A stretch of 64,000 nt of DNA from an uncultured bacterium (GCA_963826535.1 CAWGXL010000010.1:42814-106813), one strand, 5' to 3'. Shown: positions 2,790 through 48,797, counted from the stretch's first letter. Notes: generated from the sequence alone by a model not told the origin. Numbers and translations are program-made.

Positions 2790-2937
2790 TTTATACCACT
2801 CTGCTTTTATACTACAAATTTATGATACCTAACGAGCCTCTCATAGCGGGGCAAAGTGTTATAAATATTCATTTTCTTATTATTTTCTTACTTGATTTTA
2901 TCGGTATTATCTCTTTTTATGAATAAACTAACTTACT

Positions 2938-3510
2938 ATGCCAAGATTAAAACCTAGGGAAGCCACAATTTATAATAAAGAGATTACCGGCATTCCGCCT
3001 GCTTTGGGAAATGCCAGAATAACTCGTAAACAAACATTTGAGCATGATGTTACACAGAATGGAAATGTGGAAAATATATCGGCAAAACAGGTAGAAAATC
3101 AGCGGCACGAATCCCATTTAAAAATGAGCGAAATTTCAAAGAGTCGAACTGATGTTCTTTTTCAAGCCAGAACTGTTTTCCCATTCGATCTTTTTCCAAA
3201 AGTACTGACAATCAGCTCTACAAAAATAGAAGCAAAGTTAAATTCATTTTTTTACACTTATAGTACAGTCACTATCCCATTGCAGGACATAGCAAACGTA
3301 GAGCTTAATTCTTCTCTCTTTTTTTCTACTTTAAACGTTATTAATATAAGATCCAAGGACCCGCTTGTTATGCGTTTTTTGTGGAATAGGGATGCGATCA
3401 AAGGTAAAAAACTTATAAATGGATTGTTGATCGCCCAGGAATCAGGTGTAGACGTATCAGTTATAGAACCAAAAAAGCTTCTACCGCAATTAGAAGGATT
3501 GGGAGCCTAA
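2938..3510 (+). CDS. Hypothetical protein
   Basis: 190-aa ORF with no recognisable motifs; start codon uncertain. Confidence 0.35.
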   Translation: MPRLKPREATIYNKEITGIPPALGNARITRKQTFEHDVTQNGNVENISAKQVENQRHESHLKMSEISKSRTDVLFQARTVFPFDLFPKVLTISSTKIEAKLNSFFYTYSTVTIPLQDIANVELNSSLFFSTLNVINIRSKDPLVMRFLWNRDAIKGKKLINGLLIAQESGVDVSVIEPKKLLPQLEGLGA

Positions 3511-3566
3511 TTTATAGTGGAGAAACATCTTCAAAGATGGTATAATATACGTGGCATAAATATAGT

Positions 3567-21486: not shown

Positions 21487-23257
21487 TTCCTCCTCCGACC
21501 GTCCACCATTTTTTAATAAGTAATGGGGAAATATCGATTGTTTGCGTTAATGTCTGATTGCTTACACGTATTGTAAAACTCTTTATTTTATTTGTCAAAA
21601 AAGGTTCTTTCTTAAATGAAACGTTTAGACTTGCTGACCCAAAAGGAGGAATTAGGGGTACATTGAGTATTTGTTCACTAGGAGAAAGTTTGGATGATGA
21701 AATTGTTAATACCTGTGGAGATAATAGGCTTTGGCTGGCATTCTTTATTGTGATTTTACCTTTAATCGGTAAAGCAGCCATCGCATGTTTTGGCAGAGAC
21801 GAAATAATATCAAAATTAGCATCAATCGGGGGCGTGTTTTGACTGAAGTCAACCGAGACATCTTTGGTATATTTATCTGAAATAAATTTGTATCCTCCGG
21901 CAGGAATTGGGTAATTGCTATCCATTCCTTTTATAACAAAAGCAAAGTGATCAAAATCAAGTGTTGAGAAATAATCAATTCCACCTGTTGTACTTCCCCA
22001 CGTCGGATCAACCATAATCCATGTTTTTTTCTGATCATCATAATATTCCGGCCAGGCATGCAGAATATCCTTGACTAAAGAAAGAGGCCGTTGTTTGGTA
22101 TTTTGAGTGTAGGCGAATCCGTCAACTTCACGGGCTGGGATCCCGGCTGCACGGGCTAAAGCTATGAATAGATCGGTATACTCCAGGCAAACTGCGGAAT
22201 CGGGATTTTTCAACGCATTTAGAGCTCCTAAGCGGGGCTTGTCCTCCGTTACTCTTGTAAAGTCATATTTTAGTGCTTTAATTACAAATTTGTAAATTGC
22301 GTCCGGAGTTTTTAGCTCCTGTGCTAGTTGTTTTAATTCATTTGAATCTGCCTGCCAATATGGTTTTTCTTCCAGATATTTAATTCTGGACTCCTGCGAT
22401 AATTCTTCCGGCATGGGATTAAGCAGTATTTCTGCTTTACCATCAACAGTTACATCCATTTTTTGCGATGGCCCAAGATTAAAACTGGCAAGCCAATTTT
22501 TATCTTTATCAAGTACAACATTCTCGGGCAAAGGGCGAATGTCTTGAATAAAGACATTTTGATAGTTTGTCGTTGGGGGTATAGCAATTTCTGTTTTTAC
22601 AGGATAGAGATTATCATTTTTTATATGATAGGTAAGATGAAAAGAATAAATTTGCTTGTCGCCAAAGGAAATCGAAATACCGGATTTTCCAAGTTGTTTT
22701 TTATCAAAGACAAGACTTTCAAAAGAATTGACCTGCCTGCCGGCAGGCAGGTAGGGTTTAGTGTATGCCGGCTTACCAAAAGACGGCGGGACTTTAATTT
22801 CAACAGCAAATGTATCAAATTCGTCAGGATTTGATATTCCCGGTACATTAATTTCCCAGATTTTCCCGTATTGTTTGGCTACATCAGGGGTATCAAAAGT
22901 AATAGTAAAGTCTAATTTCTTACCTTGCCCTGGGGCTTTTTTGTTGAATGTTAAATTTATAATATATCCATCATCATTTTTTTCTATAACCGGATTTATT
23001 TTTCCGTCAGGATCAACGGCCGAAATATTGGTAATATTATCAAAACCCACCTGAATTTTATAAGAAGACGCGTAATACTCTGAAGTCTTATTAGTCAAGC
23101 TCACTTTTAAAGTGGCATGAGTTATTCCACTGGTCGCAGTTGAGTAAGTAACATTATAATCAGTGATAAAGTTGGAGGCAGCGGAAACAGGATACCGAGC
23201 AGATATTAAGAAAAAAGATACTATTATTGCAATTAAAAATGTAATTTTACTAAACAT
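21407..23257 (-). CDS. Transglutaminase-like cysteine protease domain protein, secreted, C-terminal TM anchor
   Basis: N-terminal signal peptide, transglutaminase core (CLEYTDLFIALARAAGIPAREVDGF), C-terminal hydrophobic anchor plus RRR tail; the 3' end overlaps the annotated uvrC start by ~80 nt. Confidence 0.65.
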   Translation of the reverse strand: MFSKITFLIAIIVSFFLISARYPVSAASNFITDYNVTYSTATSGITHATLKVSLTNKTSEYYASSYKIQVGFDNITNISAVDPDGKINPVIEKNDDGYIINLTFNKKAPGQGKKLDFTITFDTPDVAKQYGKIWEINVPGISNPDEFDTFAVEIKVPPSFGKPAYTKPYLPAGRQVNSFESLVFDKKQLGKSGISISFGDKQIYSFHLTYHIKNDNLYPVKTEIAIPPTTNYQNVFIQDIRPLPENVVLDKDKNWLASFNLGPSQKMDVTVDGKAEILLNPMPEELSQESRIKYLEEKPYWQADSNELKQLAQELKTPDAIYKFVIKALKYDFTRVTEDKPRLGALNALKNPDSAVCLEYTDLFIALARAAGIPAREVDGFAYTQNTKQRPLSLVKDILHAWPEYYDDQKKTWIMVDPTWGSTTGGIDYFSTLDFDHFAFVIKGMDSNYPIPAGGYKFISDKYTKDVSVDFSQNTPPIDANFDIISSLPKHAMAALPIKGKITIKNASQSLLSPQVLTISSSKLSPSEQILNVPLIPPFGSASLNVSFKKEPFLTNKIKSFTIRVSNQTLTQTIDISPLLIKKWWTVGGGIGIGILCIIILIIALKSGRLQIFRRR

Positions 23258-23261
23258 GAAT

Positions 23262-23400
23262 TAAAATCAAAAATCCAAAATTACAAATTCCAAATAAATT
23301 CAAATATTTAAATTCAAATATCAAAACATGTTTTGGATTTAATTATTTGAATTTTGATATTATTTGTAATTTGGTGCTTTGAATTTGTAATTTATAGATC
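23262..23400. promoter_or_regulatory. ~130 bp AT-rich imperfect palindrome centred on a perfect CAAAACATGTTTTG, between uvrA (3' end) and the transglutaminase-like gene (5' end)
   Basis: aaatccaaaattacaaattccaaata...tcaaaacatgttttggatttaat...ttgtaatttggtgctttgaatttgtaattt; the arms share AAATCCAAAA/TTTTGGATTT and ATTACAAATTC motifs. Confidence 0.4.
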
Positions 23401-23405
23401 CTAAT

Positions 23406-26339
23406 CTATTTTAATACATTCTTGAGGAATTTGCCTGTCCAAGAGTTGGGGTTAGCAGCAATTTCTTCGGGTGTGCCGGTTGCTACAACTTGTCCTCCTT
23501 TTTCTCCTCCTTCAGGACCTAAGTCAATAATGTAATCGGCATTTTTTATTACATCTAAATTATGTTCAATAACAATGACCGAATTACCAAGACTTACTAA
23601 TCTTTGTAATACATATAATAATTTTTCCAGATCAGCAAAGTGCAAGCCTGTAGTTGGCTCATCCAATATATAAAGGGCATCCCCGCCTTTTTTCGAAAGT
23701 TCAGCAGCAAGTTTGACTCTCTGGGCTTCTCCCCCTGAAAGTGTTGGAGCGGCCTGACCCAACTTGATGTAGGATAGGCCCACATCATTAAGCGTTGCCA
23801 GCCTATGCGTTAGTCCGGGAATATGCGCGAAGAAATTTAAGGCTTGTGTTACGCTCATATCCAGTACATCGGCAATATTTTTATTATTAAATAATATCTC
23901 TAACGCTTCATTGTTATATCGTTTCCCCCGGCAAACTTCGCATGTTACATAAACGTCAGCAAGAAACTGCATTTCAATTTTTATTTGACCCTCTCCTTGG
24001 CATCCCTCACAACGGCCGCCTTTTACATTAAAGGAAAATCTACCCGGACCATAGCCACGCAGTTTTGCCTCTTTTGTAGCAGCAAAGAGACTACGGATAT
24101 AGGAAAAGGCACCGGTATATGTAACACAATTACTCCTTGGTGTCCGACCAATAGGCGATTGGTCGATAGCAAAGACATGCCTCACATTCTCATGTCCCTG
24201 AAGTCCAATAAATTTACCCGCCTTTTGCGGGTGGAACGAGTTTTTTAATTGCATTAAGGCATGGAAAAGAATATCGTTTACCAGAGTTGATTTTCCGCTG
24301 CCTGAGACGCCCGTTACTACGACTAATTTATTTAAAGGGAAATCAACAGTAATCTTTTTAAGATTATGCTCTGAAGCTCCAATTAGTTTTAGGAATTTAA
24401 ATCCCCCGTCCTGCGGGACACCCCCTTTATTAAAGGGGGTAAGGGGGATTTCTTTTGCTTCTGATTTATTTATTTGTATTTTCTTTCTTCCCGACAAATA
24501 AGCACCGGTAATAGAATTTTTATTTTTCTTAATTTCCGCAATAGTTCCCTGCGCAACGATTTTTCCTCCATCTTCACCCGCTCCGGGTCCGAAGTCAAAA
24601 ATATAATCTGATTCTTCCATGGTTTCCTGGTCATGTTCAACGACCAATATTGTGTTTCCCAGATCCCGAAGCTTTTTAAGCGTCAGAATTAATTTAGAAT
24701 TGTCCCGTTGATGCAATCCAATAGACGGCTCATCCAGAACATACAAAACTCCGGTTAATCCGCTACCTATTTGTGATGCAAGGCGAATTCTTTGTGCTTC
24801 ACCTCCGGCCAAAGAAGCGGCTCCGCGGGCTAAAGTCAAGTATTCAAGCCCGACATCTATTAGAAAGCTTAAACGCTGTCGTATCTCACGCAAAATCATT
24901 TTGCCTATATCCTGTTCTCTTTTTGAAAGCACTGCGTTTTCTAGGCTGTCGATAAATTTGAGCGCCTGATCAATAGGAAAATTTGCAACATCTACTATAG
25001 ATTTATCATATATAGTAACCGCCAGTGCCTCTTTTTTAAGTCGTGCCCCATTGCAGCGCGGACAAATATCAAAACGCATAAATTTATCGATTTGGGTTCT
25101 GATAAATTGCGAGTCGGATTCATTATAGCGATTCTTGAGCTCATGATTAATGCCGCGAAACGGCTCATAAATTTCAGTTGTGCGCCCCCAGCGGTTTTCT
25201 CCTTCAACCCGGTATTCTTTTTTTCCTGTTCCGTAAATCAACAAATCTTTTTTTTCTTTGGGTACATCACTTAATTTTGTACTAAGCGGGACATCGTTCT
25301 CCTTACAGAAAGTTTTAAAAGTACGCGAAAACCAAGTGTCGCTCTCTGTCAAATTAAAAAATGGCAAGACCCCACCTTCGTTAATTGTCATTTTGTTATT
25401 GAATACCAAATCCCTGTCAACATTTAGTACCCGGCCCAAGCCGGCGCAATCCGGACATGCTCCATGAGGTGTGTTAAACGAGAAAATTCTAGGTTCAATT
25501 TCCGGAAGGGAAATGTTGCAAACAGGACAGGCAAACTTTTCGGAGAATAGTTGGTCTTCCATTTCCTTAGGCTTTTCCGGTAAATTGAACGAAGAATCTT
25601 GTATTATAGAGACAATCATTTCACCATCGCCATACTGTAATGCCTGCTCAACATCGGTGACAATACGGATCCGGTCTGTATCTTTTGTAAGCACTAAGGA
25701 ATCAATAATTACTTCGATCGTGTGCTTGTTTGTTTTAATAAGCACAAGCTTTTCATCAAGAGTAAAGACCTCTCCATCTATTCTTACCTTGCGGTATCCG
25801 CGCTTTTTCAAACTATTAAATAATTCCGTATACTCACCTTTCCTGTCTTTGACCACTGCTGCCATAAGCATAATACGCAGGTCTGCCCGTCCGGGCATTT
25901 TATGTTTTTTTAACATGTCAAATATAGTATTGGCGATTTGTTCTTTAGACTGACGGGCTATCTCACGCCCGCAATTTGGACAATGCGGATGGCCAATGCG
26001 CGCGAAAAGCAAACGAAGATAGTCATAAATTTCCGTCACCGTACCGACAGTTGAACGGGGATTATGACTTGTTGATTTCTGATCAATGGATATAGCAGGA
26101 GACAAGCCTTCAATAAGATCAATATCCGGCTTTTTCATCGTCCCCAAAAATTGGCGCGCATAAGATGAAAGACTCTCCACATAACGGCGCTGCCCCTCCG
26201 CGTATATTGTGTCAAAAGCAAGTGAAGATTTCCCGCTCCCGGAAAGCCCGGTCAAAATAACCAGCTTATTTTTAGGAATCTCCATGTCAATATTTTTGAG
26301 ATTATGTTCCCGAGCGCCTTTGATAACGAGTTTATCCAT
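23406..26339 (-). CDS. uvrA: Excinuclease ABC subunit A, with an in-frame palindromic-element insertion
   Basis: Two ABC ATPase modules ([23 protein letters not shown]; [13 protein letters not shown]) and zinc-finger CxxC pairs; 977 aa. Confidence 0.9.
24399..24452. repeat. Nested palindromic element, copy 3, in-frame in uvrA
   Basis: AAATCCCCCgtcctgcgggacaCCCCCTTTATTAAAGGGGGtaaGGGGGATTTc; encodes [16 protein letters not shown] in UvrA, in the linker before the second ABC module. Confidence 0.7.
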
Positions 26340-33524: not shown

Positions 33525-34001
33525 TCACTTTTCTATAAGCGAGCGTTCTAGTTTTATATTAAAAGGTTGAAAGCCTTCACGTTCATAAAATTGAATTGCC
33601 TTTTTGTTTGGAGTATAAGCTGTTACAGACACTTTTTGTGCACCGATTTTCTTTCCCCAGTCAATAAATACATCTACTAATTTTTTGCCAATGCCTTGAT
33701 TCCTAAAATCCTCTTTTACATAAAGATTAACAACAAAAACGACTTTAATAGTCCGGTATGAATTATCTTCTATTTCACCCATGATAAAGCCAAGAGGTTC
33801 ATTTTCTATTTCAGCTATAAAGCATATGCCTTTTGTAGCATCTATTTTTTCAGTGTAATACTTTTTACCTTCATCAGTTTCTCCCCATTTGACATCAACC
33901 TGCTCATTAAAGGGTAAATCTGAGATATTCAATTCTTCAACTAATGCCATTATTTTAGGTATATCTTCAGCTGTTGTTTTTCTGATAGAAAGTGTATTCA
34001 T
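33525..34001 (-). CDS. GNAT-family N-acetyltransferase
   Basis: Motif A RNQGIGKKLV; 158 aa. Confidence 0.75.
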   Translation of the reverse strand: MNTLSIRKTTAEDIPKIMALVEELNISDLPFNEQVDVKWGETDEGKKYYTEKIDATKGICFIAEIENEPLGFIMGEIEDNSYRTIKVVFVVNLYVKEDFRNQGIGKKLVDVFIDWGKKIGAQKVSVTAYTPNKKAIQFYEREGFQPFNIKLERSLIEK

Positions 34002-34159
34002 ACAGTAATTATACCAAAATTCGAATCCTTGTCAGTGTAAAGGATTTTTTGAAGCTAAAATCGTTGCAGGCACAGGTTGACGATTTCCGAACTACAAAAT
34101 GGAGGGAATCCATTTCATATCCGGAGCTTACTTATCTTAAGTCAAATCAGTATGTGAAA

Positions 34160-34804
34160 TTAATCGTTGTATAAATCTGTTTTGTTCAAAATATTTTTGA
34201 TTTTTTCCCTTCGCTTTTTCCCAAAATTGTTTCTGTATTCTATATAATATTTTGCATTATCAAAATTGTTGACGTAGTCCATAATGTTTTTCGGAAATCG
34301 ATAGGTCTGATAAGTAAGTTTTTCATCAACCTTTTCACCACCTGAAAGATTGAATGCTCTACCATGTCTTTCTACCCATGCCTTTGTTACATTTTCGCTT
34401 TCCTTTTCCCATTCTGTATGTTCAGTAACAGGCTGTATTTTTATAATTCGCCGTTTTGTAAAAAAACGCCAAACAGTTTTCTCCGGTATTGAAATTAGTA
34501 AAACAGGCTTATCAATAGAACCGGAACCGCCCCTTTCATTCCGTACGGTAATCTCAAGTTCAAACTCCAACACGCTGTTTTTGAGTTCTTCCAATATGCG
34601 TCCATTCCAATCTCTTGCTACCCAATCAGGAATTATAAGGTGCGTTTCTTCGACCGTGATTTTCGGAGTGTTATATTTGAAGCTAAACCAGCTTACGATT
34701 AAGCCAACAATACCAGTTATTGAACCAAGAATACCCCAAAAATTTGCCTGCCAAAAAGTGTTCCCTTGCTGAGTAAATATGCCAATAAGCGCCTGTATGT
34801 CCAT
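34160..34804 (-). CDS. Hypothetical single-TM protein (third gene of a LexA-box-controlled operon)
   Basis: N-terminal TM segment (ILGSITGIVGLIVSWFSF); abuts the stop of the upstream DUF2188 gene. Confidence 0.4.
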   Translation of the reverse strand: MDIQALIGIFTQQGNTFWQANFWGILGSITGIVGLIVSWFSFKYNTPKITVEETHLIIPDWVARDWNGRILEELKNSVLEFELEITVRNERGGSGSIDKPVLLISIPEKTVWRFFTKRRIIKIQPVTEHTEWEKESENVTKAWVERHGRAFNLSGGEKVDEKLTYQTYRFPKNIMDYVNNFDNAKYYIEYRNNFGKKRREKIKNILNKTDLYND

Positions 34805-34806
34805 TT

Positions 34807-35046
34807 TTAATGTTCCGTATCCCTTGGAGGATTTGGGTTGTTACTGTTTATGGTATCTTTGCTACGGATAGGTCCGTGTTGGCTTTGAGTTATTAGTTCT
34901 CCGCCACTATTATTTTGAAGCACGTTGCGTGCATAATCTTCTGCTTCTCTTTGTGTATCGAAAACTCGTGATGCTCGTTCAGCTCCTTCTCGTTGTGCCT
35001 TCCAGCCGTTAGTATCGGGTGAAACCCAATAATTACTTTTTTTCAT
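34807..35046 (-). CDS. DUF2188-like small protein
   Basis: WVSPDTNGWKAQREGAERASRVFDTQREAEDYARNV matches the DUF2188 pattern (W.V..eGgWkvkreGaerassvhdTk.eA...Are.A). Confidence 0.55.
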   Translation of the reverse strand: MKKSNYWVSPDTNGWKAQREGAERASRVFDTQREAEDYARNVLQNNSGGELITQSQHGPIRSKDTINSNNPNPPRDTEH

Positions 35047-35972
35047 GTCCGGTCACCTCCTTTGTCAATAATCTCTTTTACTTTTTCTTCCCAATATTCT
35101 CGATGAACGACCCGTGCTTTTTGAAGGCTCTCGTTTAGTATCTGAGCCTTTGTCATTTGCGAAAGTTTCTCCCAATCTTCATCGAAGAGGTAAGTGGCAT
35201 TGCCGTAATACATACTTTCCAGCACATAAATCTTTTTTTTGGTGAAGCCATGCACTATGTACCCATGAAACCCTCCGGTTCCAATCGCTCTGAAGTCCGG
35301 TTTGAGTGAATTGACGGTCTCTAGCCGGTAATAAAGTACTTTTCTGTTGCCTTCCGGTGCATTTTTTACAATAGGGTCTATCTCTTCTTTGAATTGTGCC
35401 CAAGGCATTTCTCCTTGAGGCAAGACTGTCCAATTCAGTCTTCGCAAGGGAGTTTTTATGATTGCCTCCAAGTCTTTTGTAAAAAATTGGCATTCTCCAA
35501 ATAATTCCAAGAAAAGATTTACAGTATGCGTTAGTAGCTCAATATCACTTTCTCCTTTTTCAAACACAGGTGATGTAAGAAGCAAACGTCCTTCAGGTGA
35601 TTTGACAATAGAGAGCTCTACTGCCGGTGGTTCAACAAAAGTTCGTGGATATCTTTGGTAAGGGACATCGACTATTTTGGAGTGTCTCGTTCCGTCCCAT
35701 TCTTCCCACTCCCAGTCAGTTTGACGGTAGGCTGTTTCCATCGGCTGGTCTTTGTGAACAATATTTTTTCCTTCAGCATTGTATCGACTTACAGGTCCGA
35801 TGTCTGCCGGAAGTATGGATTGTCCGCTTTCATAAGGCTCAGAGAAGCCAATACTTTTTAGTATCGTAGAAAATTTTTGTAGGTCAGTAATTCCGAGGAT
35901 AATTTTTGAACCGTTCTGAATATGACGGGTATAGGGGATGATGTTTCGGATACGTTTTTTCTGTATAATCAT
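35043..35972 (-). CDS. Hypothetical protein (first gene of the divergent LexA-box-controlled operon)
   Basis: 309 aa with no motif recognised; overlaps the next gene by 4 nt. Confidence 0.4.
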   Translation of the reverse strand: MIIQKKRIRNIIPYTRHIQNGSKIILGITDLQKFSTILKSIGFSEPYESGQSILPADIGPVSRYNAEGKNIVHKDQPMETAYRQTDWEWEEWDGTRHSKIVDVPYQRYPRTFVEPPAVELSIVKSPEGRLLLTSPVFEKGESDIELLTHTVNLFLELFGECQFFTKDLEAIIKTPLRRLNWTVLPQGEMPWAQFKEEIDPIVKNAPEGNRKVLYYRLETVNSLKPDFRAIGTGGFHGYIVHGFTKKKIYVLESMYYGNATYLFDEDWEKLSQMTKAQILNESLQKARVVHREYWEEKVKEIIDKGGDRT

Positions 35973-36035
35973 GATCGTAATAATTGCAGTCTTTCATAGT
36001 GAAAGGCTGAGGCAAGTATAAGGCACATTTCGTGA

Positions 36036-36082
36036 TTTGTCAAGAACAAAACAGTAGAACAAGAAATTCTGTTCTTGACAAA
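36036..36082. promoter_or_regulatory. Palindromic operator overlapping divergent sigma70-type promoters (TTGACA-17-TATAAT toward lexA-like; TTGACA-17-TATACT toward the minus-strand operon)
   Basis: TTTGTCAAGAACA-aaacagtagaacaagaaat-TGTTCTTGACAAA; the right arm contains TTGACA (36075-36080), 17 bp before TATAAT (36098-36103) and ATG 36116; the left arm (rc) gives TTGACA, with TATACT (rc of 36015-36020) 17 bp away toward the gene at 35972. Confidence 0.6.
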
Positions 36083-36115
36083 CATCAAGTCCTGCCCTAT
36101 AATATAACTTATAGT

Positions 36116-36736
36116 ATGCAACCCTTACATCCTGTCCAAAAAAAGCTTTTGGAAGTTCTAAAAGCAAACATGGACGACCCTCTTACAATAAGACAACTTA
36201 TGAAATTGGCAAGTGCTTCCTCTCCGAGCGTAATTCATCACCATATTACCCAATTAGAAAAAAAAGGACTTTTAAGGAGAAATCCCTCTAACCCATCTGA
36301 CTATCAGGTTCTTATGGGAGAGCCAGAAAAAGAGATTGCTTTTTTAAACCTTTATGGTCTTGCTCAATGCGGTCCAAAAGGGTCAATTTTAGACGGTAAC
36401 CCAGTAGACAGAATAAGAATATCGTCTAAATTCCTAGGCTTTTCTGCTCTTGATGCGTTTGCTGTAAAAGCAAAAGGCACATCAATGTTACCTAAAATAA
36501 AGCCTGGCGACTTGGTAATCGCTAAAAGGTCAAACACATTTAATAATGGAGATGTTGTTATTTGTGTAAATAATGGTGAGGCATTGATAAAAAAAGTACA
36601 GATAATCACTAAAGATGATGAACATATTGCTTATAACCTTATTTCGGTTAATTCACAAAATTACCCTCCTTTTTTAGCAGGTGAAGATTTTAGAGTAGAA
36701 GGTATTGTGCGAGGAGTTTTGACTTATTCGGTATAA
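36116..36736 (+). CDS. lexA: LexA-like repressor (winged-helix DNA-binding domain + S24 peptidase)
   Basis: N-terminal LexA DNA-binding-like region (LTIRQLMKLASASSPSVIHHHITQLEKKGLLRR); C-terminal S24 Ser/Lys dyad context (AKGTSMLPKIKPGDLV...ALIKKV); true start MQPLHPV at 36116 (the track start 36032 lies in the operator). Confidence 0.75.
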   Translation: MQPLHPVQKKLLEVLKANMDDPLTIRQLMKLASASSPSVIHHHITQLEKKGLLRRNPSNPSDYQVLMGEPEKEIAFLNLYGLAQCGPKGSILDGNPVDRIRISSKFLGFSALDAFAVKAKGTSMLPKIKPGDLVIAKRSNTFNNGDVVICVNNGEALIKKVQIITKDDEHIAYNLISVNSQNYPPFLAGEDFRVEGIVRGVLTYSV

Positions 36737-36835
36737 ATAATTTATGGTAATGCCCCCCTCAGGGTGGATTAGCTTGACACATATTCTTTTAAAGTATTCT
36801 CTAATATTTTGTGATCCTTTTTAAACATTTGATAA

Positions 36836-37114
36836 TTATTCTCTATTTTTTTCTCCATTAAAATATTCTCTAAGCATTAATCTTAGAGTTGTTTTGCCTT
36901 TGGTTGTTTTAAAATAATCCTCTCTCCGTTTAGCATCCTTTATTTTCCTGTATGCCTCATAATGGATTAACTCAAGTGGAAGATAGGCTTTTGTAGATGT
37001 GACTGCACCATTATTGTGAGATATCACTCGTGCTTTTAAATCTTCAGAGTAGCCGGCATACACGAATTTTTTCAACGAATTATGGAGAATATAGACGTAA
37101 TAAAACTTCATGGT
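36836..37114 (-). CDS. GIY-YIG nuclease-family protein (UPF0213/YhbQ-like)
   Basis: FYYVYILHNSLKKFVYAGYSEDLKARVISHN: GIY-YIG motif; start at MKFYYVYIL. Confidence 0.65.
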   Translation of the reverse strand, partial: TMKFYYVYILHNSLKKFVYAGYSEDLKARVISHNNGAVTSTKAYLPLELIHYEAYRKIKDAKRREDYFKTTKGKTTLRLMLREYFNGEKNRE

Positions 37115-37249
37115 TGTAGACGTACTAGTCACTATCGTTCCAGTACATCTCTGCCTCACCACTCATTTGCTTTATAGTTAAACTCTAATCCTTTGCCTAA
37201 TTAATTTAAGGGCGAAGCGATGAACCCAAACGAAGTGAGTGGTTCGTTG

Positions 37250-37321
37250 CAGGGACGCACGGATTCGAACCGTGAAAAGCAGTTTTGGAGACTGCTGTGA
37301 TAACCGTTTCACCACGTCCCT
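37250..37321 (-). tRNA. tRNA-Trp (CCA)
   Basis: Cloverleaf on the reverse complement: acceptor AGGGACG/CGTCCCT, D-stem GTGA/TCAC, anticodon stem GCAGT/ACTGC with loop CTCCAAA, T-stem CACGG/CCGTG; no encoded 3'-CCA. Confidence 0.8.
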
Positions 37322-37393
37322 AAGTTAGCAAATAGTAAATAGCATATAGAATATGGTTTTATTTACCATTCGCCATAAGCTATTCGCCATTTA

Positions 37394-37573
37394 CTATTTA
37401 AGCTTGTCCGTCTCTTTATGGTCTGTTTTTTTACGGCAGTGCCTGCAATATTTTTTTAATAATAACTTTTCCGGTGTTTCCAGTTTATTTTTTTGAGTTA
37501 TATAATTCCTATTTTTACAAACAGAACAGACAAGACCTATTTTTATTCTATGTTCACCTTTTTTTGGCATACT
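37394..37573 (-). CDS. rpmG: 50S ribosomal protein L33
   Basis: MPKKGEHRIKIGLVCSVCKNRNYITQKNKLETPEKLLLKKYCRHCRKKTDHKETDKLK: L33 CxxC...CxxC zinc ribbon; the track ORF is over-extended upstream into the tRNA; RBS AGGAGG before the ATG. Confidence 0.85.
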   Translation of the reverse strand, partial: SMPKKGEHRIKIGLVCSVCKNRNYITQKNKLETPEKLLLKKYCRHCRKKTDHKETDKLK

Positions 37574-37609
37574 CCTCCTTTCAATATATATTATCTTTTT
37601 ACATATTTG

Positions 37610-37681
37610 AGCCGAAGGCGGGAATCGGACCCGCGACCTAGTTCTTACCAAGAACTCGCTCTACCACTGAGCCACTTCGGC
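37610..37681 (-). tRNA. tRNA-Thr (GGT)
   Basis: Acceptor GCCGAAG/CTTCGGC, D-arm GCTC-AGTGGTA-GAGC, anticodon loop TTGGTAA, T-arm GCGGG-TCCGATT-CCCGC. Confidence 0.8.
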
Positions 37682-37702
37682 TTTTGCCGCAAAGCGGCTT
37701 TG

Positions 37703-37786
37703 TGCTGAGGGAGGGAATTGCACCCCCGGAGTCCGAACGGACGCGTGGTCTACAGCCACGTGCAATTGCTACTCTGCCACCTCAGC
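37703..37786 (-). tRNA. tRNA-Tyr (GTA) with long variable arm
   Basis: Acceptor GCTGAGG/CCTCAGC, anticodon stem CGTGG/CCACG with loop CTGTAGA, 16-nt variable arm, T-arm GGGGG-TGCAATT-CCCTC (unusual T-loop). Confidence 0.7.
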
Positions 37787-37861
37787 GCATTTAGCTAGTT
37801 GCTATTAGCTGTCAGCTCTCTGACAACAAAAAATCTGAAAGCAGAAAGTTAACAGCAGATA

Positions 37862-37933
37862 GCAAATATTGAGCCGACAGAGGGATTTGAACCCCCGACC
37901 CATGCTTTACAAAAGCATTGCTCTACCACTGAG
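37862..37933 (-). tRNA. tRNA-Thr (TGT)
   Basis: Acceptor GCCGACA/TGTCGGC, anticodon stem ATGCT/AGCAT with loop TTTGTAA, T-arm GGGGG-TTCAAAT-CCCTC. Confidence 0.8.
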
Positions 37934-38025
37934 CTATGTCGGCGATTTTGCAATGCAAAACCTAGAACCTGACGATTCAGAAAATACAAGCATAATTTTA
38001 GCAGACATAGGGGGGCTTCAGCAAC

Positions 38026-38971
38026 CTGTCGGATTATTCTCCGTAGAAATCCGACAGTAAGCGGCAGAGAAAAGATATACTATGAATATGCAACAAATAA
38101 CGAAAGTTTCTCTCGCCTGGGAATTGTTTGAACAAGGGATGCCAAAGACTCATATTGCCAAGCAGCTTGGCATTCATCGGGAAACTGTTCATTTATGGAT
38201 CTGTGGTATTCTCAATAATCCACAAGGGCTTATGGGATTCCTAGACTACTATCTTGTGGCTAAGAAAGGAGACCGTCCTAAACGGCAAGTGAATGCAATT
38301 CTAAAAAGGTGGGTCTGGCAGATTAGAGAGCGTGAGATGGATTGTTGCGGAGATAAAATACAATACTTTCTCAAAAAAGAACACGCCGTTTCTATCTCAA
38401 TTCCTAAGATTTATGAGATATTAAAAGAGAAGTACGTTCTTCGGAAGAGACGAGGCAATAACATAAAACGTGGGCCGGTACCAAAAGCGGTAAAACCTCG
38501 GGAAGTAATTCAAATGGATACAATTGACTTTGGAGAACTCTTTGCCTTTACAGCAGTTGATATCTTTTCCAGAGAAGCAGATGTTGTCCTTCGCCCATCC
38601 CTAACCAGTAATGATGGTGTTATTTTCCTGGATACCTGTATGAGAAGACGCTTCAATGGGCATAGCGATTTAATACAGGCAGATGGCGGGCCGGAGTTTA
38701 AAGACAAATTTGCAGAAAAAGTCTATACTTACACAGATAGATTTCGTATTTCAAGACCTTACAAGAAAAATGAACAATCTTTCATTGAAAGCTTTAACAA
38801 AACAGTAAGAAAAGAATGCCTGGGGTGGAACAAGTATAGAAAATCAGAACTTTTAGAAGCAAAAAGCCTTATTGAAGCATTTCTTCAAAGATATCATTAT
38901 CATAGACCGCATATTAGTTTAGGAATGAAACCGCCGCTTACCAGCTAAACTAAAGTGTCGGATATTTACGG
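38026..38971 (+). mobile_element. IS481-like insertion sequence (single transposase ORF; imperfect terminal inverted repeats CCGTAGAAATCCGACAG / GTGTCGGATATTTACGG)
   Basis: Left-end hairpin ctgtcggatt-attctccgtagaa-aatccgacag (38026-38057); right end gtgtcggatatttacgg (38955-38971) is the imperfect reverse complement of the left inner arm; inserted ~90 bp from tRNA-Thr. Confidence 0.55.
38082..38948 (+). CDS. Transposase, DDE integrase core (rve), IS481-like
   Basis: N-terminal HTH (THIAKQLGIHRETVHLWI); rve core with QMDT...D...ESFNKTVRKE catalytic pattern; 288 aa. Confidence 0.75.
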   Translation: MNMQQITKVSLAWELFEQGMPKTHIAKQLGIHRETVHLWICGILNNPQGLMGFLDYYLVAKKGDRPKRQVNAILKRWVWQIREREMDCCGDKIQYFLKKEHAVSISIPKIYEILKEKYVLRKRRGNNIKRGPVPKAVKPREVIQMDTIDFGELFAFTAVDIFSREADVVLRPSLTSNDGVIFLDTCMRRRFNGHSDLIQADGGPEFKDKFAEKVYTYTDRFRISRPYKKNEQSFIESFNKTVRKECLGWNKYRKSELLEAKSLIEAFLQRYHYHRPHISLGMKPPLTS

Positions 38972-45581: not shown

Positions 45582-48500
45582 ATGACCATCAAAAAACTAT
45601 TCATTGCCAATCGCGGAGAAATCGCTGTTCGCGCCGCACGTGCTTGTGAAAAAAGAAAAATACAAGCTGTTATCCCTTACTCCTTTTCCGATAGTCAATC
45701 GCTGGCTACAAGAATTGCAGACCGCAATAGTGATAAAGGTTGGGAGCTGGCAGTACTTGGCGGCGTGAGTTCCGAAGAAACTTATGCTAATCCGAAAAAG
45801 ATGCTCCAAACAGCCCTATTACATCGTTGTGATGCAATCTTTCTAGGTTATGGATTCCTTTCCGAAAACGCGGAATTTGTACGCGCATGTGAAACAGCAG
45901 GACTGAAGGTGCTTTCGACTTCACCTACTAGCATGGAAATGGTAGGGAATAAGATTTCGGCGCGTGAAATCGCCAAAAAAATTAAAATCGGCGCTTTTGC
46001 TACGATCCCTATTCTGCAAGGTTCAGGAAATCTACAGACTTTTGAAGAAACAGTAAAAGCCGCACAGGATTTGGGATTCCCTGTGATGATGAAAGACCCG
46101 GATAAAGGCGGGGGAATGGGAAATATTGTTGCCAACAATGAAGCTGAATTGCAGCAAGCATACACAACTCTTAGAATGAACAGAAGTAATACCGGACTTT
46201 TTTTGGAGCGGTATATCCGGCGCGCTGTACATGTTGAAGTTCAAATTTTGGCAGATACTCATGGCAATGTAGTCCATTTAGGTGAGCGCGATTGTACCAT
46301 GCAGAGATTGAGTCAAAAACTTGTCGAAGAATCGCCGAGTCCGCACATTTCAAAGCATATCCGTGAGATTATCCAGTCCACGTCAGTGGATTTCGCCAAA
46401 CATGTGGGCTATCGTGGCGCGGGCACGTGGGAATTTATTGTTGATTTAGATAAAAAGGGAAGACACGGCCCCGCCTGGTATTTTATGGAAGTAAATCCAA
46501 GAATTCAGGTTGAACATGGAGTGACAGAGCAGCAAACAGGAATTGATATAGTGAACACCATGATTGATATTGCCGAAGGAAAAAAATTACCCTTCACTCA
46601 AGACCAAATAAAACCGGAGGGGCATACAATTGAAGTCAGGGTTTATGCGGAAAAACCCGAGGAGGGATTTAAACAAAGCTTTGGACGCCTTGAAGTTCTC
46701 AAATACCCCACCCTAAAAGGCGTACGTATAGACAAAGGTTGTGAGCAAGGCGATGAGATCTCTCCTTGGTTTGATCCCACAATCTGTAAACTTATTGCCC
46801 ACGGCACGACAAGAGAAGAAGCCAGACACCGCCTGTCTCTGGCGCTTTTAAATCTTGATATTGTCGGTGTACAAAATAACCGCGATTTTCTTATGGAACT
46901 TTTGAACACTGAAGAATTTAGGGGCGCGTCAGCAACAACTTCATTTGTGGAAATCTGGTGGCAAAAACAATTACAAGTGAAAATCTATGCGCTAGGTGGA
47001 CTTGTCAAAAGAGGTACATTTACCCCTCAACCAAGTAGGCGTACCTTTAAACCGATGCTTCTTCCTCAACAAGTTAGTGTTCCCTCCCGCAAGTCTTCGG
47101 ATCTTGTTTCGTATAGTCAATATTATGAATTGCAGCAAACAAAATCAGGTCAGAACTCCGCCGCGGAATTTGGTATTGCTGAACGTGACGGTATACAATT
47201 TGTTCTATATGAGTTGGATGATAGATTCGCAGCAGGGACACTTGGAGTCGCTGAAGGAATTGCCTTTGTTGACGCATGCCGCCTTGCCAATACAAATAAT
47301 CTTCCTTTAGTAACTATTTCGCGTTCAGGCGGAGCACGGCAACATGAGAATACTATGTCTCTATTCCAAATGGGCGCGACTATCAATGCTCTAAATAAAT
47401 ACCCGCCCCTTTTCCATATAAATATTTATTCGGGCGGCGTCTATGGCGGTGTACCTGCAAGTTTTGCCGGAGTCGCGGATATTCAAATTGCCGTGAATGT
47501 CAAAGAAACGAAAATCGGCTTCACCGGTCCTTATATTACGGCAAAAACTCTGGGAAAACAGCCAAAAAGTTTTTCTGCCTCTGATTCATATCAGGAATTG
47601 CCCGAGGGAACTCATACTCCTCTTCACGCGTTTCAAACAAGAAACATAGATATTTTAGCTGCAAGTCTTGAAGAAGCATCTGACAAAATAACTCATCTTT
47701 TACATATTTTGAAAATACCTTCAACTGTCACTGATCCGAATAAAGTCTTTGCCGTTTACGAGCATATTGGATTCCAGCAAATGCCTGGTACAGGGCAACG
47801 ATTTGACCGTCCGGGTATTGGTGTATTTGTTTGGCTTCGTAATAAAATTGGCAGTCTATTGTGGAAACAGCATAAGCCTGTTGCCAATGGTAATAAGAAT
47901 TCAAATTCTTATCCTCCATTATCAATTACCAACAGGAGAAAAGTTCTTATGCATGTTAATCGGCCAACAGCCGCAGATCTGATTGATAAAAATGCTGGGA
48001 TTTTCGATGACACTATTGCGCTTACTTCTGTATTACATATAGATGGCGCCGAACAATACCCTCCTATAATTGCCGCCGTTGCGAAACTCGGCGATAGGAC
48101 AGTATTTATTCTAGGGCAACAAACCCAAAGGGTTATTGATGAAAAATCTGGAAAAAAAGTTAAAGTTTATGATCCCCAAAAACCCGCTGATTGGGAATAT
48201 ACAGAGCGTATGATCGCTATTGCAGACAGGCTACATCTTCCTATTATTCTCATCGGTGATACGCTTGGAGCTGATTGTTTGCCTGATTCGGAAGACCGCA
48301 ATCAATCGCATAAGATTGCGCACGTTATTAAAGCCCTTGATAGTTACCCTTATCCTGTAATTAGTGTTAATATTGGTTTCAAAGGTAGCGGCGGAGGAGA
48401 AACATTTATCCGCCCCTTTGATGCTGCTGCTGATTTTGAAAACAGTTTAAGTTTTGTTTCTGATCCTATGGTCCAATATTGGATTTTGACCGGTAGATGG

Positions 48501-48797
48501 ATTGACAAGTCGTCAACGCCAGAATCTCAACAGGAACTATCACGTTTTATTGAACAACTAAAAGATTCAACAGCCCAAACCCGCTTACATACACATCAAA
48601 TTGATGCTATTATTCGGGAAGGGAAAGGCGGCGCTCATGTTGACCCGACAATTATTATAGCTAATTTAAGACCATGGATTAAGAAACAATTATCTCAACT
48701 TGAGAAATATTCATCCGTTGATCTTCTTAATCGCCGTCATGAACGAATAGAGCGCACGAATAACACAGTCACTGTTGAAGCATCAAATTTGTTATGA
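45582..48797 (+). CDS. Fused biotin carboxylase - carboxyltransferase (AccC-like N-terminus + AccD/AccA-like C-terminus), 1071 aa
   Basis: N-terminal ATP-grasp biotin carboxylase (KLFIANRGEIAVRAARACEK, ...FMEVNPRIQVEHGVTE); C-terminal crotonase-fold CT motifs (SGGARQHENTMSLFQMGAT; GDTLGADCLPDSEDRNQSHKIAHVIKAL). Confidence 0.75.
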   Translation: MTIKKLFIANRGEIAVRAARACEKRKIQAVIPYSFSDSQSLATRIADRNSDKGWELAVLGGVSSEETYANPKKMLQTALLHRCDAIFLGYGFLSENAEFVRACETAGLKVLSTSPTSMEMVGNKISAREIAKKIKIGAFATIPILQGSGNLQTFEETVKAAQDLGFPVMMKDPDKGGGMGNIVANNEAELQQAYTTLRMNRSNTGLFLERYIRRAVHVEVQILADTHGNVVHLGERDCTMQRLSQKLVEESPSPHISKHIREIIQSTSVDFAKHVGYRGAGTWEFIVDLDKKGRHGPAWYFMEVNPRIQVEHGVTEQQTGIDIVNTMIDIAEGKKLPFTQDQIKPEGHTIEVRVYAEKPEEGFKQSFGRLEVLKYPTLKGVRIDKGCEQGDEISPWFDPTICKLIAHGTTREEARHRLSLALLNLDIVGVQNNRDFLMELLNTEEFRGASATTSFVEIWWQKQLQVKIYALGGLVKRGTFTPQPSRRTFKPMLLPQQVSVPSRKSSDLVSYSQYYELQQTKSGQNSAAEFGIAERDGIQFVLYELDDRFAAGTLGVAEGIAFVDACRLANTNNLPLVTISRSGGARQHENTMSLFQMGATINALNKYPPLFHINIYSGGVYGGVPASFAGVADIQIAVNVKETKIGFTGPYITAKTLGKQPKSFSASDSYQELPEGTHTPLHAFQTRNIDILAASLEEASDKITHLLHILKIPSTVTDPNKVFAVYEHIGFQQMPGTGQRFDRPGIGVFVWLRNKIGSLLWKQHKPVANGNKNSNSYPPLSITNRRKVLMHVNRPTAADLIDKNAGIFDDTIALTSVLHIDGAEQYPPIIAAVAKLGDRTVFILGQQTQRVIDEKSGKKVKVYDPQKPADWEYTERMIAIADRLHLPIILIGDTLGADCLPDSEDRNQSHKIAHVIKALDSYPYPVISVNIGFKGSGGGETFIRPFDAAADFENSLSFVSDPMVQYWILTGRWIDKSSTPESQQELSRFIEQLKDSTAQTRLHTHQIDAIIREGKGGAHVDPTIIIANLRPWIKKQLSQLEKYSSVDLLNRRHERIERTNNTVTVEASNLL

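Follow-up and report, generated by a model that had tools for sequence, protein, structure and literature searches.

Organisation of the locus

The locus analysed here lies in a 64-kb stretch of DNA from an uncultured bacterium, the whole of which is referred to as the window. It encodes a LexA-like repressor and, on the opposite strand, a divergent operon of three genes, whose products are referred to as A309 (309 residues), the DUF2188 protein and TM214 (214 residues). Domain and hydrophobicity results agree with the gene assignments made in a sequence-only reading of the region, namely a LexA-like protein, a 309-residue protein, a DUF2188 protein and a protein with a single membrane segment. 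The features are as follows.

34160-34804, minus strand: TM214, 214 aa, membrane helix at the N-terminus, then an Ig-like beta-sandwich domain
34807-35046, minus strand: DUF2188 protein, 79 aa (PF09954, E 9e-19, 67.8 bits, cut-off 22)
35043-35972, minus strand: A309, 309 aa, member of a large uncharacterised family
36015-36043, minus strand: promoter of the cargo operon, TTGACA (36043-36038), 17 bp, TATACT (36020-36015), 11 of 12 consensus matches
36036-36082, unstranded: 13-bp perfect inverted repeat, each arm made up of a -35 hexamer and an abutting half-site
36043-36075, unstranded: predicted operator of three hexamer half-sites, AGAACA-N7-AGAACA-N8-TGTTCT (AGAACA at 36043-36048, AGAACA at 36056-36061, TGTTCT at 36070-36075)
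36075-36103, plus strand: promoter of the LexA-like gene, TTGACA (36075-36080), 17 bp, TATAAT (36098-36103), 12 of 12 consensus matches
36116-36736, plus strand: LexA-like repressor, 206 aa (PF01726 and PF00717)
36836-37111, minus strand: small GIY-YIG protein (PF01541, E 8e-12), convergent with the LexA-like gene

The genes of the operon had been described as joined by 4-nt overlaps. This holds for A309 and the DUF2188 gene, which overlap in ATGA, but the third gene starts only after a 2-nt gap that follows the stop codon of the DUF2188 gene (TAAAAATG).

The LexA-like repressor

The repressor has an N-terminal winged-helix DNA-binding domain of the LexA type (PF01726, E 8.1e-10, residues 1-60) and a C-terminal S24 autoprotease domain (PF00717, E 1.3e-16). 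Its start codon, the ATG at 36116, is backed by homologues that begin with MQxLHP. An AQCGP motif aligns with the QCG cleavage site of UmuD and gives Cys85-Gly86 as the predicted cleavage site. The GTSM and IKK motifs correspond in the alignment to the catalytic motifs of LexA as well as UmuD and give Ser123 and Lys159 as the predicted catalytic residues. G86, S123 and K159 are invariant in an alignment of 13 cassette repressors. Judged by these motifs, the protein is a LexA-type S24 self-cleaving repressor whose apparatus is predicted to be intact.

More than 1000 homologues of this subfamily have been detected, many of them labelled 'repressor LexA' by JGI. The named members belong to Patescibacteria, and most of the subfamily comes from uncultured Patescibacteria-type metagenome contigs; a metagenome scan with the repressor itself returned one weak relative only. 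The score against the NCBIfam LexA equivalog TIGR00498 is 78.8 bits, under the cut-off of 110.95, and the promoter region of uvrA and uvrC in the window is devoid of the operator box. For these reasons the protein looks like a dedicated local regulator rather than a demonstrated master regulator of the SOS response, and membership in a cellular SOS regulon does not find support, the operator having no second copy in the 64 kb. A recA gene was not found among the ORFs scanned in the window.

Divergent promoters and the predicted operator

In the inverted repeat, TGTTCTTGACAAA (36070-36082) is the exact reverse complement of TTTGTCAAGAACA (36036-36048), with 21 nt between the two arms. Perfect inverted repeats of at least 13 bp with a spacer of at most 40 nt occur at two loci of the window, against 0.145 per 64 kb expected from first-order Markov simulations, and the repeat is confirmed as far beyond chance; the second locus, at 425-459, is a hairpin. 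The two divergent promoters proposed along with it are likewise borne out, being the best promoter-like sites in a promoter scan of 33900-37300. Their -35 boxes are 32 bp apart, and the three half-sites common to both occupy the space between them with a 1-nt overlap at either end. The leader of the LexA-like gene measures only about 6 nt up to its ATG and that of the cargo operon about 36 nt up to the ATG at 35972. A small hairpin in the latter is not significant (z = -1.3), and an Rfam search for regulatory RNA in the leader matched nothing but tRNAs.

A palindrome of the form 13-N21-13 had been proposed as the operator shared by both promoters. A common repressor-binding region is retained, but the palindrome as its conserved unit has been given up in favour of the three hexamers, because the 13-mer arms show no conservation across related loci whereas the hexamers are conserved. 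The arrangement AGAACA-N6/7-AGAACA-N8/9-TGTTCT-TGAC recurs 5' of orthologous LexA-like genes or of the cargo operon at the loci L011, L012 and L100/L101. Four unrelated contigs share the three-half-site layout with the window, and the operator assignment is based on five loci. The sequence TGTTCTTGAC is kept at the position of the LexA-like promoter in L011, L012, L092 and L100.

The recognition helix, SPSVIHHHIT, is identical in the repressors of the window and L011. The repressors of L092 and L099, which are 59-63% identical, have intergenic motifs that differ from that of the window; together with L083 these loci have an altered recognition helix, and the full three-half-site motif is absent from all three. 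The search for other copies of the half-site suggested in the sequence-only reading was made within the 64-kb window, where no AGAACA-N(4-24)-TGTTCT or AGAACA-N(5-8)-AGAACA was found beyond the operator, and an operator scan across viral contigs gave no match. A box of the Cheo type, GAAC-N4-GTTC, was also considered; its two matches in the window are at chance level and, by their coordinates, both fall inside listed ORFs. From the geometry and the conservation we infer that one common repressor-binding region serves the two divergent promoters, and that a repressor occupying the predicted half-sites would shut both.

A309 and the other products of the operon

The first search for A309 revealed 781 homologues. 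At 50% identity the family divides into 1949 clusters, almost all of stand-alone proteins of 300-315 residues. An alignment of 52 sequences has 42 invariant columns, and the family is labelled 'hypothetical protein' in every source. A309 has no match in Pfam, NCBIfam or PADLOC and no sequence match in the PDB; the one match among PHROGs is marginal (E 0.012) and of unassigned function. When the A309 proteins of the window and of four other loci were compared with the PADLOC models at E-values of 0.1 to 1, none matched. The AF2 model (pLDDT 89.7) has no Foldseek match in the PDB or BFVD.

A309 spans numerous bacterial phyla and reaches into the archaea with at least one MAG. It is encoded in 100 of 5426 E. 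coli genomes (1.8%), the single E. coli locus inspected being situated inside a tRNA-Leu island, and also in Enterobacter and Klebsiella. It has further been identified on 21 plasmids, including small and lactococcal ones, and matches one of 50,697 phage records.

The DUF2188 protein shares similarity with the PADLOC candidate PDC-S16 (E 1.1e-19, residues 1-75 of a 75-position profile) and with phrog_3220. Of 81 genome loci, 10 have its gene beside A309, as do L090, L092 and L099. TM214 has a single hydrophobic segment at residues 24-42, and its AF2 model (pLDDT 91.4) consists of a helix at 3-45 followed by beta-strands, for which the fold search gave weak matches to generic beta-sandwiches only (ApaG, Spo0M and the cytoplasmic domain of KirBac). 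Neither LysM nor any other Pfam domain was detected in it. The lysines directly after the membrane helix suggest that the C-terminal domain is probably cytoplasmic. TM214 has 34 homologues, few of which have a named source, in each case Patescibacteria or uncultured bacteria; it recurs in one other cassette with a LexA-like gene, A309 and DUF2188, at L099, and elsewhere in different contexts. Of the three genes earlier taken together as one cargo, A309 alone is the conserved cargo of the cassette; DUF2188 often accompanies it, and TM214 does so sporadically.

None of the models of known toxins or effectors fits A309, nor is a catalytic fold recognisable in it, and it is by elimination the presumed effector, probably a conditional growth-arrest or anti-phage protein. 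More than half of the A309 loci have no adjacent repressor or DUF2188 gene, so that A309 cannot be a toxin that is always lethal and depends on this repressor.

Regulators and genomic neighbourhood of A309

The neighbourhood of A309 has been surveyed in 81 species-representative loci. In about a third of them A309 is paired with a protease-gated repressor, which may be of the LexA-like S24, the CapH/CapP-like or the RmrA-like kind: the gene lies beside a LexA-like gene in 9 loci and, in about 18, beside one whose product falls into a cluster with confirmed Peptidase_M78 (IrrE-type) proteins. PADLOC assigned 6 RmrA and 5 capP among 77 upstream neighbours. All 12 loci with an A309 at least 55% identical to that of the window have a cleavable-repressor module, ten of them LexA-like/S24 and one (L008) made up of HTH_3 and Peptidase_M78, while L012 is cut at the operator. 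The A309 of L090 is 85% identical to that of the window and its LexA-type repressor only 25%; the A309 of L008, 69% identical, is paired with a CapH/CapP-like pair. Regulators are swapped even between close relatives of A309.

The genes found next to A309 include R-M, GmrSD, Cas4-like, AAA_15/Gabija-like, NERD, FokI-like and SLATT genes, as well as CBASS with Cap15 and a CD-NTase. The conserved unit is a cassette of two to four genes, and the flanks differ in every locus. In the window the cassette adjoins a tRNA cluster, with an rve-type integrase-like ORF about 1 kb beyond; neither an att-like repeat, be it a direct repeat of tRNA-Trp or any other, nor a clear GC shift was found that would mark island boundaries. 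Orthologues of the LexA-like gene also adjoin unrelated defence genes in non-syntenic places, and one that is 60% identical and has the same operator precedes an R-M system with no A309. The A309 family is horizontally scattered and resides in defence islands. Among the roles proposed earlier for the tightly packed operon, defence is the likeliest, and there is no sign of a mutagenesis module or of a prophage remnant.

At L060 A309 follows a CD-NTase and was considered as a CBASS effector. That operon already has the effector Cap15, and A309 is therefore regarded there as an instance of island co-location only.

Proposed mechanism

These observations suggest, with fair confidence, that the locus is a mobile, self-contained cassette of a protease-gated repressor and an effector, switched by DNA damage, which forms an S24/LexA counterpart of the CapH/CapP and RosmerTA-type modules. 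The wiring of the cassette is a known design, and the main protein of its cargo belongs to a widespread but unannotated family. By guilt by association, its role is most likely in phage defence or cell suicide.

At rest, the LexA-like protein would sit as dimers on the three AGAACA half-sites between the back-to-back -35 boxes and silence both its own promoter and that of the A309-DUF2188-TM214 operon. Single-stranded DNA arising from DNA damage or phage replication would activate RecA, which is expected to trigger self-cleavage of the repressor at Cys85-Gly86 through the Ser123/Lys159 dyad; this trigger is suggested by the S24 family, the cleavage motifs themselves being present. Both promoters would then open and the operon be expressed, with A309 acting as the putative effector, DUF2188 as its frequent partner and TM214 as an occasional membrane-anchored accessory.

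Comparison with known systems

The window resembles the canonical LexA/SOS system in domain architecture, cleavage chemistry, a predicted operator that overlaps the repressor's own promoter and a half-site that contains GAAC. LexA boxes of Gram-positive bacteria contain GAAC/GTTC. The repressor could be the genuine LexA of its host, perhaps its only one, and the divergent operon part of a small cellular SOS regulon with a function in damage repair or tolerance. The size of the subfamily, its 'repressor LexA' labels and its named members in Patescibacteria fit such a view, as do the more canonical LexA N-termini of the repressors in the cassettes of L090 and L093; the SOS network of Patescibacteria was reportedly analysed by Sanchez-Osuna et al. 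in 2017. We nevertheless regard it as unlikely. The repressor scores under the equivalog cut-off, and uvrA and uvrC in the window, like the rest of the 64 kb, are without a second box. Canonical LexA binds one palindrome of 14-16 bp, whereas the window has three half-sites with long spacers, and the LexA-like genes of this type lie in non-syntenic, island-like locations beside R-M systems or A309. The rarity of A309 and its location on plasmids and islands are unlike a core repair function, and other lineages replace the regulator with CapH/CapP-like or RmrA-like modules.

A close parallel to the proposed damage-switched cassette is found in operons of 'DUF2188 + hypothetical protein' that are associated with CapH/CapP and divergent from their regulators, and in which cleavage of CapH is triggered by DNA damage (Lau et al. 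2022, bioRxiv 10.1101/2022.04.27.489752). In both cases the repressor gene lies upstream of a defence-type operon with DUF2188 and runs in the opposite direction, repressor binding in the window being predicted; the proteins that Lau et al. list as hypothetical (WP_144728457.1, WP_144728459.1) may or may not correspond to A309. Proteolysis of the repressor upon DNA damage (ssDNA) in these operons would have its counterpart in the window. CapH/CapP comprises two proteins, an HTH protein and a Zn-metallopeptidase, whereas the window encodes a single polypeptide in which a LexA-type winged helix is fused to S24, and no pair of HTH repressor and M78 Zn-metallopeptidase is present in its cassette, although close relatives of A309, such as that of L008, use one. 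The expected trigger is hence RecA-ssDNA and not the direct activation of CapP by ssDNA.

RosmerTA is defined by a Zn-peptidase antitoxin that is combined with diverse, functionally uncharacterised toxins (Millman et al. 2022; Ernits et al. 2023, PMC10440598). It shares with the cassette a protease-containing regulator or antitoxin and an interchangeable effector, but RmrA (HTH + ImmA/IrrE Zn-peptidase) is absent from the window and A309 matches no PADLOC model, RmrT included. Since RmrTs are heterogeneous by definition (PMC10440598), the missing match is compatible with an RmrT-like role. The similarity in architecture to the Xre/Zn-peptidase TA-like modules that define RosmerTA also raises the prospect of an addiction module that stabilises the island, with A309 as the toxin and the repressor as a transcriptional antitoxin, and with no part in phage defence. 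The occurrence on small plasmids and the fact that Millman et al. (2022) could not obtain an rmrA-deleted strain are in line with it. We hold this to be quite improbable, as many A309 genes lack any candidate antitoxin or repressor beside them, which is hard to fit with an unconditional toxin, and as characterised modules of like architecture did protect against phage (Millman et al. 2022; PMC10440598). The addiction module overlaps with the protease-gated defence cassette and differs from it only in the selective benefit.

AlpR and PrtR are S24-type repressors encoded divergently from their targets. In Pseudomonas aeruginosa these dedicated non-LexA repressors autocleave after DNA damage and thereby derepress a self-harming programme (PMC7969949). 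The AlpR-alpA-alpBCDE and PrtR-pyocin circuits thus depend on a dedicated autocleaving repressor of the sort proposed for the window. Their cargo consists of holin-like lysis genes or pyocins, whereas that of the window is A309 and DUF2188, and they act through an antiterminator or activator relay (AlpA, PrtN) of which the window has none.

Well-documented cases exist in which lexA is flanked by a divergent gene for a single-pass membrane inhibitor of division (PMC6851548), and TM214, with its one N-terminal membrane helix and a promoter divergent from a lexA-like gene, recalls YneA, SosA, ChiZ and DivS. In an SOS cell-division checkpoint it might serve as a functional counterpart of YneA, SosA or ChiZ, whose genes are divergent from lexA in Gram-positive bacteria; in L097 one homologue is found 98 bp downstream of ftsA-ftsZ, and others occur with LexA-type regulators in L099 and L095. 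This is very unlikely, as TM214, at 214 residues, is encoded by the third gene of the operon, is not the conserved member and occurs in only one of the related cassettes examined. Moreover, YneA, SosA and ChiZ have an extracellular C-terminal domain, often with LysM, whereas that of TM214 is a generic Ig-like beta-sandwich, probably cytoplasmic and without LysM.

An immunity remnant of a prophage or integrative element, with a CI-like repressor facing an early operon, is the least probable reading: an S24 repressor at divergent promoters is a typical feature of temperate phages, the repressor of the window matches phrog_4 and CI-like PHROGs, DUF2188 has phage homologues and a tRNA cluster and an integrase-like ORF are near, but the N-terminal domain is of the LexA and not the CI/Cro HTH type, the flanks are without phage structural, replication or lysis genes, no att-like tRNA repeat was found, A309 is almost absent from phage records and only the small cassette is conserved amid differing flanks.

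Wider implications

It is possible, though somewhat short of probable, that A309 founds a new and very widespread effector family of an unrecognised immune or programmed-death system, in which LexA-S24, CapH/CapP or RmrA gates are interchangeable; that the window represents its first S24-gated version and adds a new three-half-site operator of the LexA type; and that Patescibacteria use this operator on defence genes, R-M included, and not on DNA repair. If so, such modules would be unified by a repressor destroyed by a damage-activated protease and not by a protein family, with regulators of the LexA, CapH/CapP and RmrA types being exchanged before the same cargo. Immunity that heeds a DNA-damage signal would then extend to the very small genomes of Patescibacteria, and A309 would be a concrete, easily testable candidate for a new effector of defence or suicide whose fold has so far gone unrecognised. 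The half-sites also provide a candidate DNA-binding motif for the LexA-like subfamily, which could be used to map its targets in metagenomes.

The small GIY-YIG protein encoded beside the repressor gene possibly travels with the cassette. A homologue that is 47% identical occupies the same position beside the LexA-like gene in L001, and other small GIY-YIG-like ORFs have been identified inside related cassettes.

Organisation of the cassette

A gene for a LexA-like protein stands divergent from a three-gene operon encoding a protein of 309 residues (A309), a DUF2188 protein and a protein of 214 residues (TM214). The features are as follows.

36116-36736, + strand: LexA-like protein, 206 aa (ATG 36116)
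36075, + strand: repressor promoter, TTGACA, 17-bp spacer, TATAAT, towards ATG 36116
36043, - strand: cargo promoter, TTGACA, 17-bp spacer, TATACT, towards ATG 35972
35043-35972, - strand: A309, 309 aa (ATG 35972)
34807-35046, - strand: DUF2188 protein, 79 aa
34160-34804, - strand: TM214, 214 aa, with a single N-terminal membrane helix

The four genes are those named in the sequence-only reading, and the divergent promoters that it described are also present. They score 12/12 (+ strand) and 11/12 (- strand) in the consensus scan, the top promoter-like scores of the region, and point away from each other within 36015-36103. The 4-nt overlaps claimed for the operon were found between A309 and DUF2188 (ATGA) but not between DUF2188 and TM214, which are separated by 2 nt.

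The LexA-like repressor

The repressor is comprised of a LexA winged-helix domain (PF01726) and an S24 autoprotease domain (PF00717). When it is aligned with LexA of Thermotoga and UmuD of E. coli, the Cys85-Gly86 cleavage site coincides with the QCG motif of UmuD, and Ser123 and Lys159 fall on the catalytic dyad. With these residues so aligned, and invariant across 13 cassette repressors, the predicted self-cleavage machinery is intact; by analogy with the family, its trigger would be RecA-ssDNA. The protein differs from LexA proper in remaining under the threshold of the NCBIfam LexA equivalog (78.8 bits, cut-off 110.95). More than 1000 homologues have been detected, over 120 of them at least 58% identical, chiefly on metagenome contigs. 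Where a source is named, which is the case for few of them, the organism belongs to Patescibacteria, and the label is often 'repressor LexA' or 'S24 family peptidase'.

Predicted operator between the divergent promoters

The segment TTTGTCAAGAACA-N21-TGTTCTTGACAAA (36036-36082), initially proposed as a palindromic operator, is an exact inverted repeat. Simulated sequences give 0.145 perfect inverted repeats of at least 13 bp per window. The 64 kb contain two, the other being a hairpin at 425-459 made up of GACAAAAAACCCGC and its complement. The palindrome is thus real in the window, but its 13-mer arms vary among related cassettes: comparison of the intergenic regions reveals that the arms are not kept and that three hexamers recur instead.

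The operator candidate of the window is AGAACA(36043)-N7-AGAACA(36056)-N8-TGTTCT(36070), which adjoins the TTGAC of the repressor -35 box and occurs once in the 64 kb. The pattern AGAACA-N6/7-AGAACA-N8/9-TGTTCTTGAC has also been identified 5' of LexA-like genes in the fetched loci L011 and L100/L101, and at the cut end of L012, 5' of its A309 operon; it is absent from the remainder of the approximately 100 fetched loci. The repressors of the window and L011 have identical recognition helices. Those of L092, L099 and L083 have a differing helix, and other repeats are present in their intergenic regions.

The 33 bp that separate the -35 boxes of the window are taken up by the three half-sites, and the long palindrome arises there because each outer half-site chances to adjoin a -35 hexamer. 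The operator itself contains the cargo -35 box in L011 and L012. The repressor, once bound, should therefore occlude both promoters. The regulatory interpretation of the sequence-only reading is largely right, to be narrowed to three half-sites and to a local regulator, and we regard the predicted logic of repressor and operator as likely.

Local or global regulation

The window also encodes two genes of excision repair, uvrA and uvrC.

23406-26339, - strand: uvrA
21407-23257, - strand: transglutaminase-like gene, between uvrA and uvrC
19957-21486, - strand: uvrC

Lying head to tail (19957-26339, - strand), these three genes probably form one operon. The three-half-site box was not found in the uvrA/uvrC promoter region, no second copy exists in the 64-kb window, and no promoter of the window contains a Cheo-type box. 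In L100/L101 (3433-5442), a LexA-like gene 60% identical to that of the window and preceded by the same operator is situated 22 nt 5' of a cytosine DNA methylase gene, with an NgoBV-type restriction enzyme gene convergent to it; this S24 repressor may serve as controller of the R-M system. Other LexA-like orthologues stand 5' of A309. These positions, together with the missing box at uvrA/uvrC, favour a regulator devoted to mobile defence genes, as far as the 64-kb window searched for the box is concerned. The SOS network of Patescibacteria was reportedly analysed by Sanchez-Osuna et al. in 2017.

A separate 12-bp palindrome, AGGCAATTGCCT, is located upstream of uvrA, just 5' of a TATAAT, and may be bound by another regulator.

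The A309 family and its neighbours

A309 is the conserved gene of the cassette. A word-indexed search has identified 781 homologues and an exhaustive profile search 1949 clusters at 50% identity; nearly all members are stand-alone proteins of 300-315 aa. The protein is named 'hypothetical' in every source and is recognised by none of the profile libraries searched. Its AlphaFold model is confident (pLDDT 89.7) and has no Foldseek match in PDB or BFVD. Homologues of 40-85% identity are found in Patescibacteria, Omnitrophota, Proteobacteria, Firmicutes, Cyanobacteria, Chloroflexota and Bacteroidota, and in one archaeal genome bin (MAG). Such identity across distant phyla points to horizontal transfer. 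The gene is present in 100 of the 5426 complete E. coli genomes, and the one locus inspected places it in an island adjoining tRNA-Leu, next to recombinase genes as well as integrase and transposase pseudogenes. It is also carried by 21 plasmids, a lactococcal one included, and by a single phage record. That it so often occurs alone speaks for a putative effector that acts conditionally and against an unconditional toxin.

A protease-gated repressor module accompanies A309 in all 12 loci in which it is at least 55% identical to that of the window: it is a LexA-like/S24 gene in ten and a pair of XRE-HTH and Peptidase_M78 proteins in L008, and L012 is cut at the operator. Among 81 species-representative loci, a LexA-like gene is seen in 9, and in about 18 a neighbouring gene falls into a cluster with confirmed Peptidase_M78 proteins. 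PADLOC assigns upstream neighbours of A309 to RmrA, the Zn-peptidase antitoxin of RosmerTA (6), and capP (5). In L090, A309 is 85% identical to that of the window and the LexA-type repressor 25%. To judge from these comparisons, the regulators are shuffled independently of the A309 cargo. Otherwise A309 is surrounded by genes typical of defence islands (R-M, GmrSD, Cas4-like, AAA_15/Gabija-like, NERD, SLATT, FokI-like and a complete CBASS of Cap15 and CD-NTase). Defence, one of the options offered for the cargo, is the one backed by evidence, and we give a defence or abortive-infection role an even chance.

In Dechloromonas (L060, 2205-4957), A309 lies 50 bp 3' of a complete minimal CBASS (Cap15 effector and CD-NTase), with an rve integrase fragment just past it. 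Seven betaproteobacterial loci (L063, L067, L075, L076, L080, L085 and L086; ~2000-3900) share a conserved three-gene regulator block divergent from A309, comprising a Peptidase_M78 protein and two small proteins (~130 and ~200 aa) without Pfam match in L086, the one locus scanned. This block may represent a different protease-to-promoter relay. On plasmid 5 of Lactococcus cremoris SK11 (L088, 301-5912), a mobilisable dairy plasmid of 14 kb, a 1560-aa DEAD/DEAH-box helicase is followed after 18 nt by an A309 homologue, and the two may form a two-gene system in lactococci.

Accessory proteins

DUF2188 accompanies A309 in 10 of the 81 loci and in most close relatives; the protein of the window matches the PADLOC single-gene candidate PDC-S16. 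TM214, whose predicted model is a membrane helix with a generic beta-sandwich, has 34 homologues, the few source-named ones being from Patescibacteria or uncultured bacteria. Only L099 again combines it with the LexA-like gene, A309 and DUF2188. In other loci it comes after ftsA-ftsZ, or after a LexA-DNA-binding protein and a serine protease.

The latter arrangement is exemplified by L095 (2152-4642). One product there, 130 aa long, is a LexA DNA-binding domain and nothing else; after it come an SDH-type serine protease (PF01972), DUF6941 and a TM214 homologue (79% identical), and a serine recombinase is close by. Possibly the cleavable repressor is 'split' here, its protease being the product of a separate gene. 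In L097 (2766-4609) a gap of 98 bp separates ftsA-ftsZ from the homologue 3' of them, and a zeta toxin comes next; nothing else hints at a connection with cell division.

Small GIY-YIG proteins that stand alone are a recurrent feature within the cassette or next to it, in the window (36836-37111, - strand) and in L001, L012, L013, L014, L017 and L003. That of L001 (3711-3980) is 47% identical to the window's and adjoins the LexA-like gene. GIY-YIG-like ORFs of ~100 aa also adjoin A309 in several loci, either separating it from the LexA-like gene or immediately 3' of it.

Relation to known systems

In Pseudomonas, DNA damage leads the repressor AlpR to cleave itself, which sets off a lysis programme (PMC7969949). 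The HTH repressor CapH is cleaved after DNA damage by the ssDNA-activated M78 peptidase CapP, whereupon a divergent CBASS operon is switched on; CapH/CapP-like pairs were also listed before 'DUF2188 + hypothetical protein' operons (Lau et al. 2022, 10.1101/2022.04.27.489752). RosmerTA comprises a Zn-peptidase antitoxin and diverse toxins whose function is unknown, and protects against phage (Millman et al. 2022; Ernits et al. 2023, PMC10440598). The cassette, as read from its sequence, resembles these three systems in its mode of working; like its own repressor, AlpR is LexA-like. Since the cassette lacks the Zn-peptidase regulator that defines CapH/CapP and RosmerTA, it belongs to neither. 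The Gram-positive lexA-yneA/sosA arrangement (PMC6851548) is a weaker parallel, since the conserved element of the cassette is not the membrane protein. By analogy, the cassette is best filed as a putative S24-gated variant of the same design with an uncharacterised effector family, and this overall reading seems to us somewhat better than evenly probable.

Surroundings of the cassette

The cassette is bordered by a tRNA cluster (Trp, Thr, Tyr, Thr; 37249-37943, - strand) with an rpmG-like ORF among the tRNA genes; no att-like repeat was found there. Past the cluster lies an ORF for a putative rve/DDE integrase (38082-38948, + strand). Further on, biotin carboxylase and carboxyltransferase (ACCA/Carboxyl_trans) domains are joined in a single ORF of 1071 aa (45582-48797, + strand), a fused acyl-CoA carboxylase that is unusual for a small genome.
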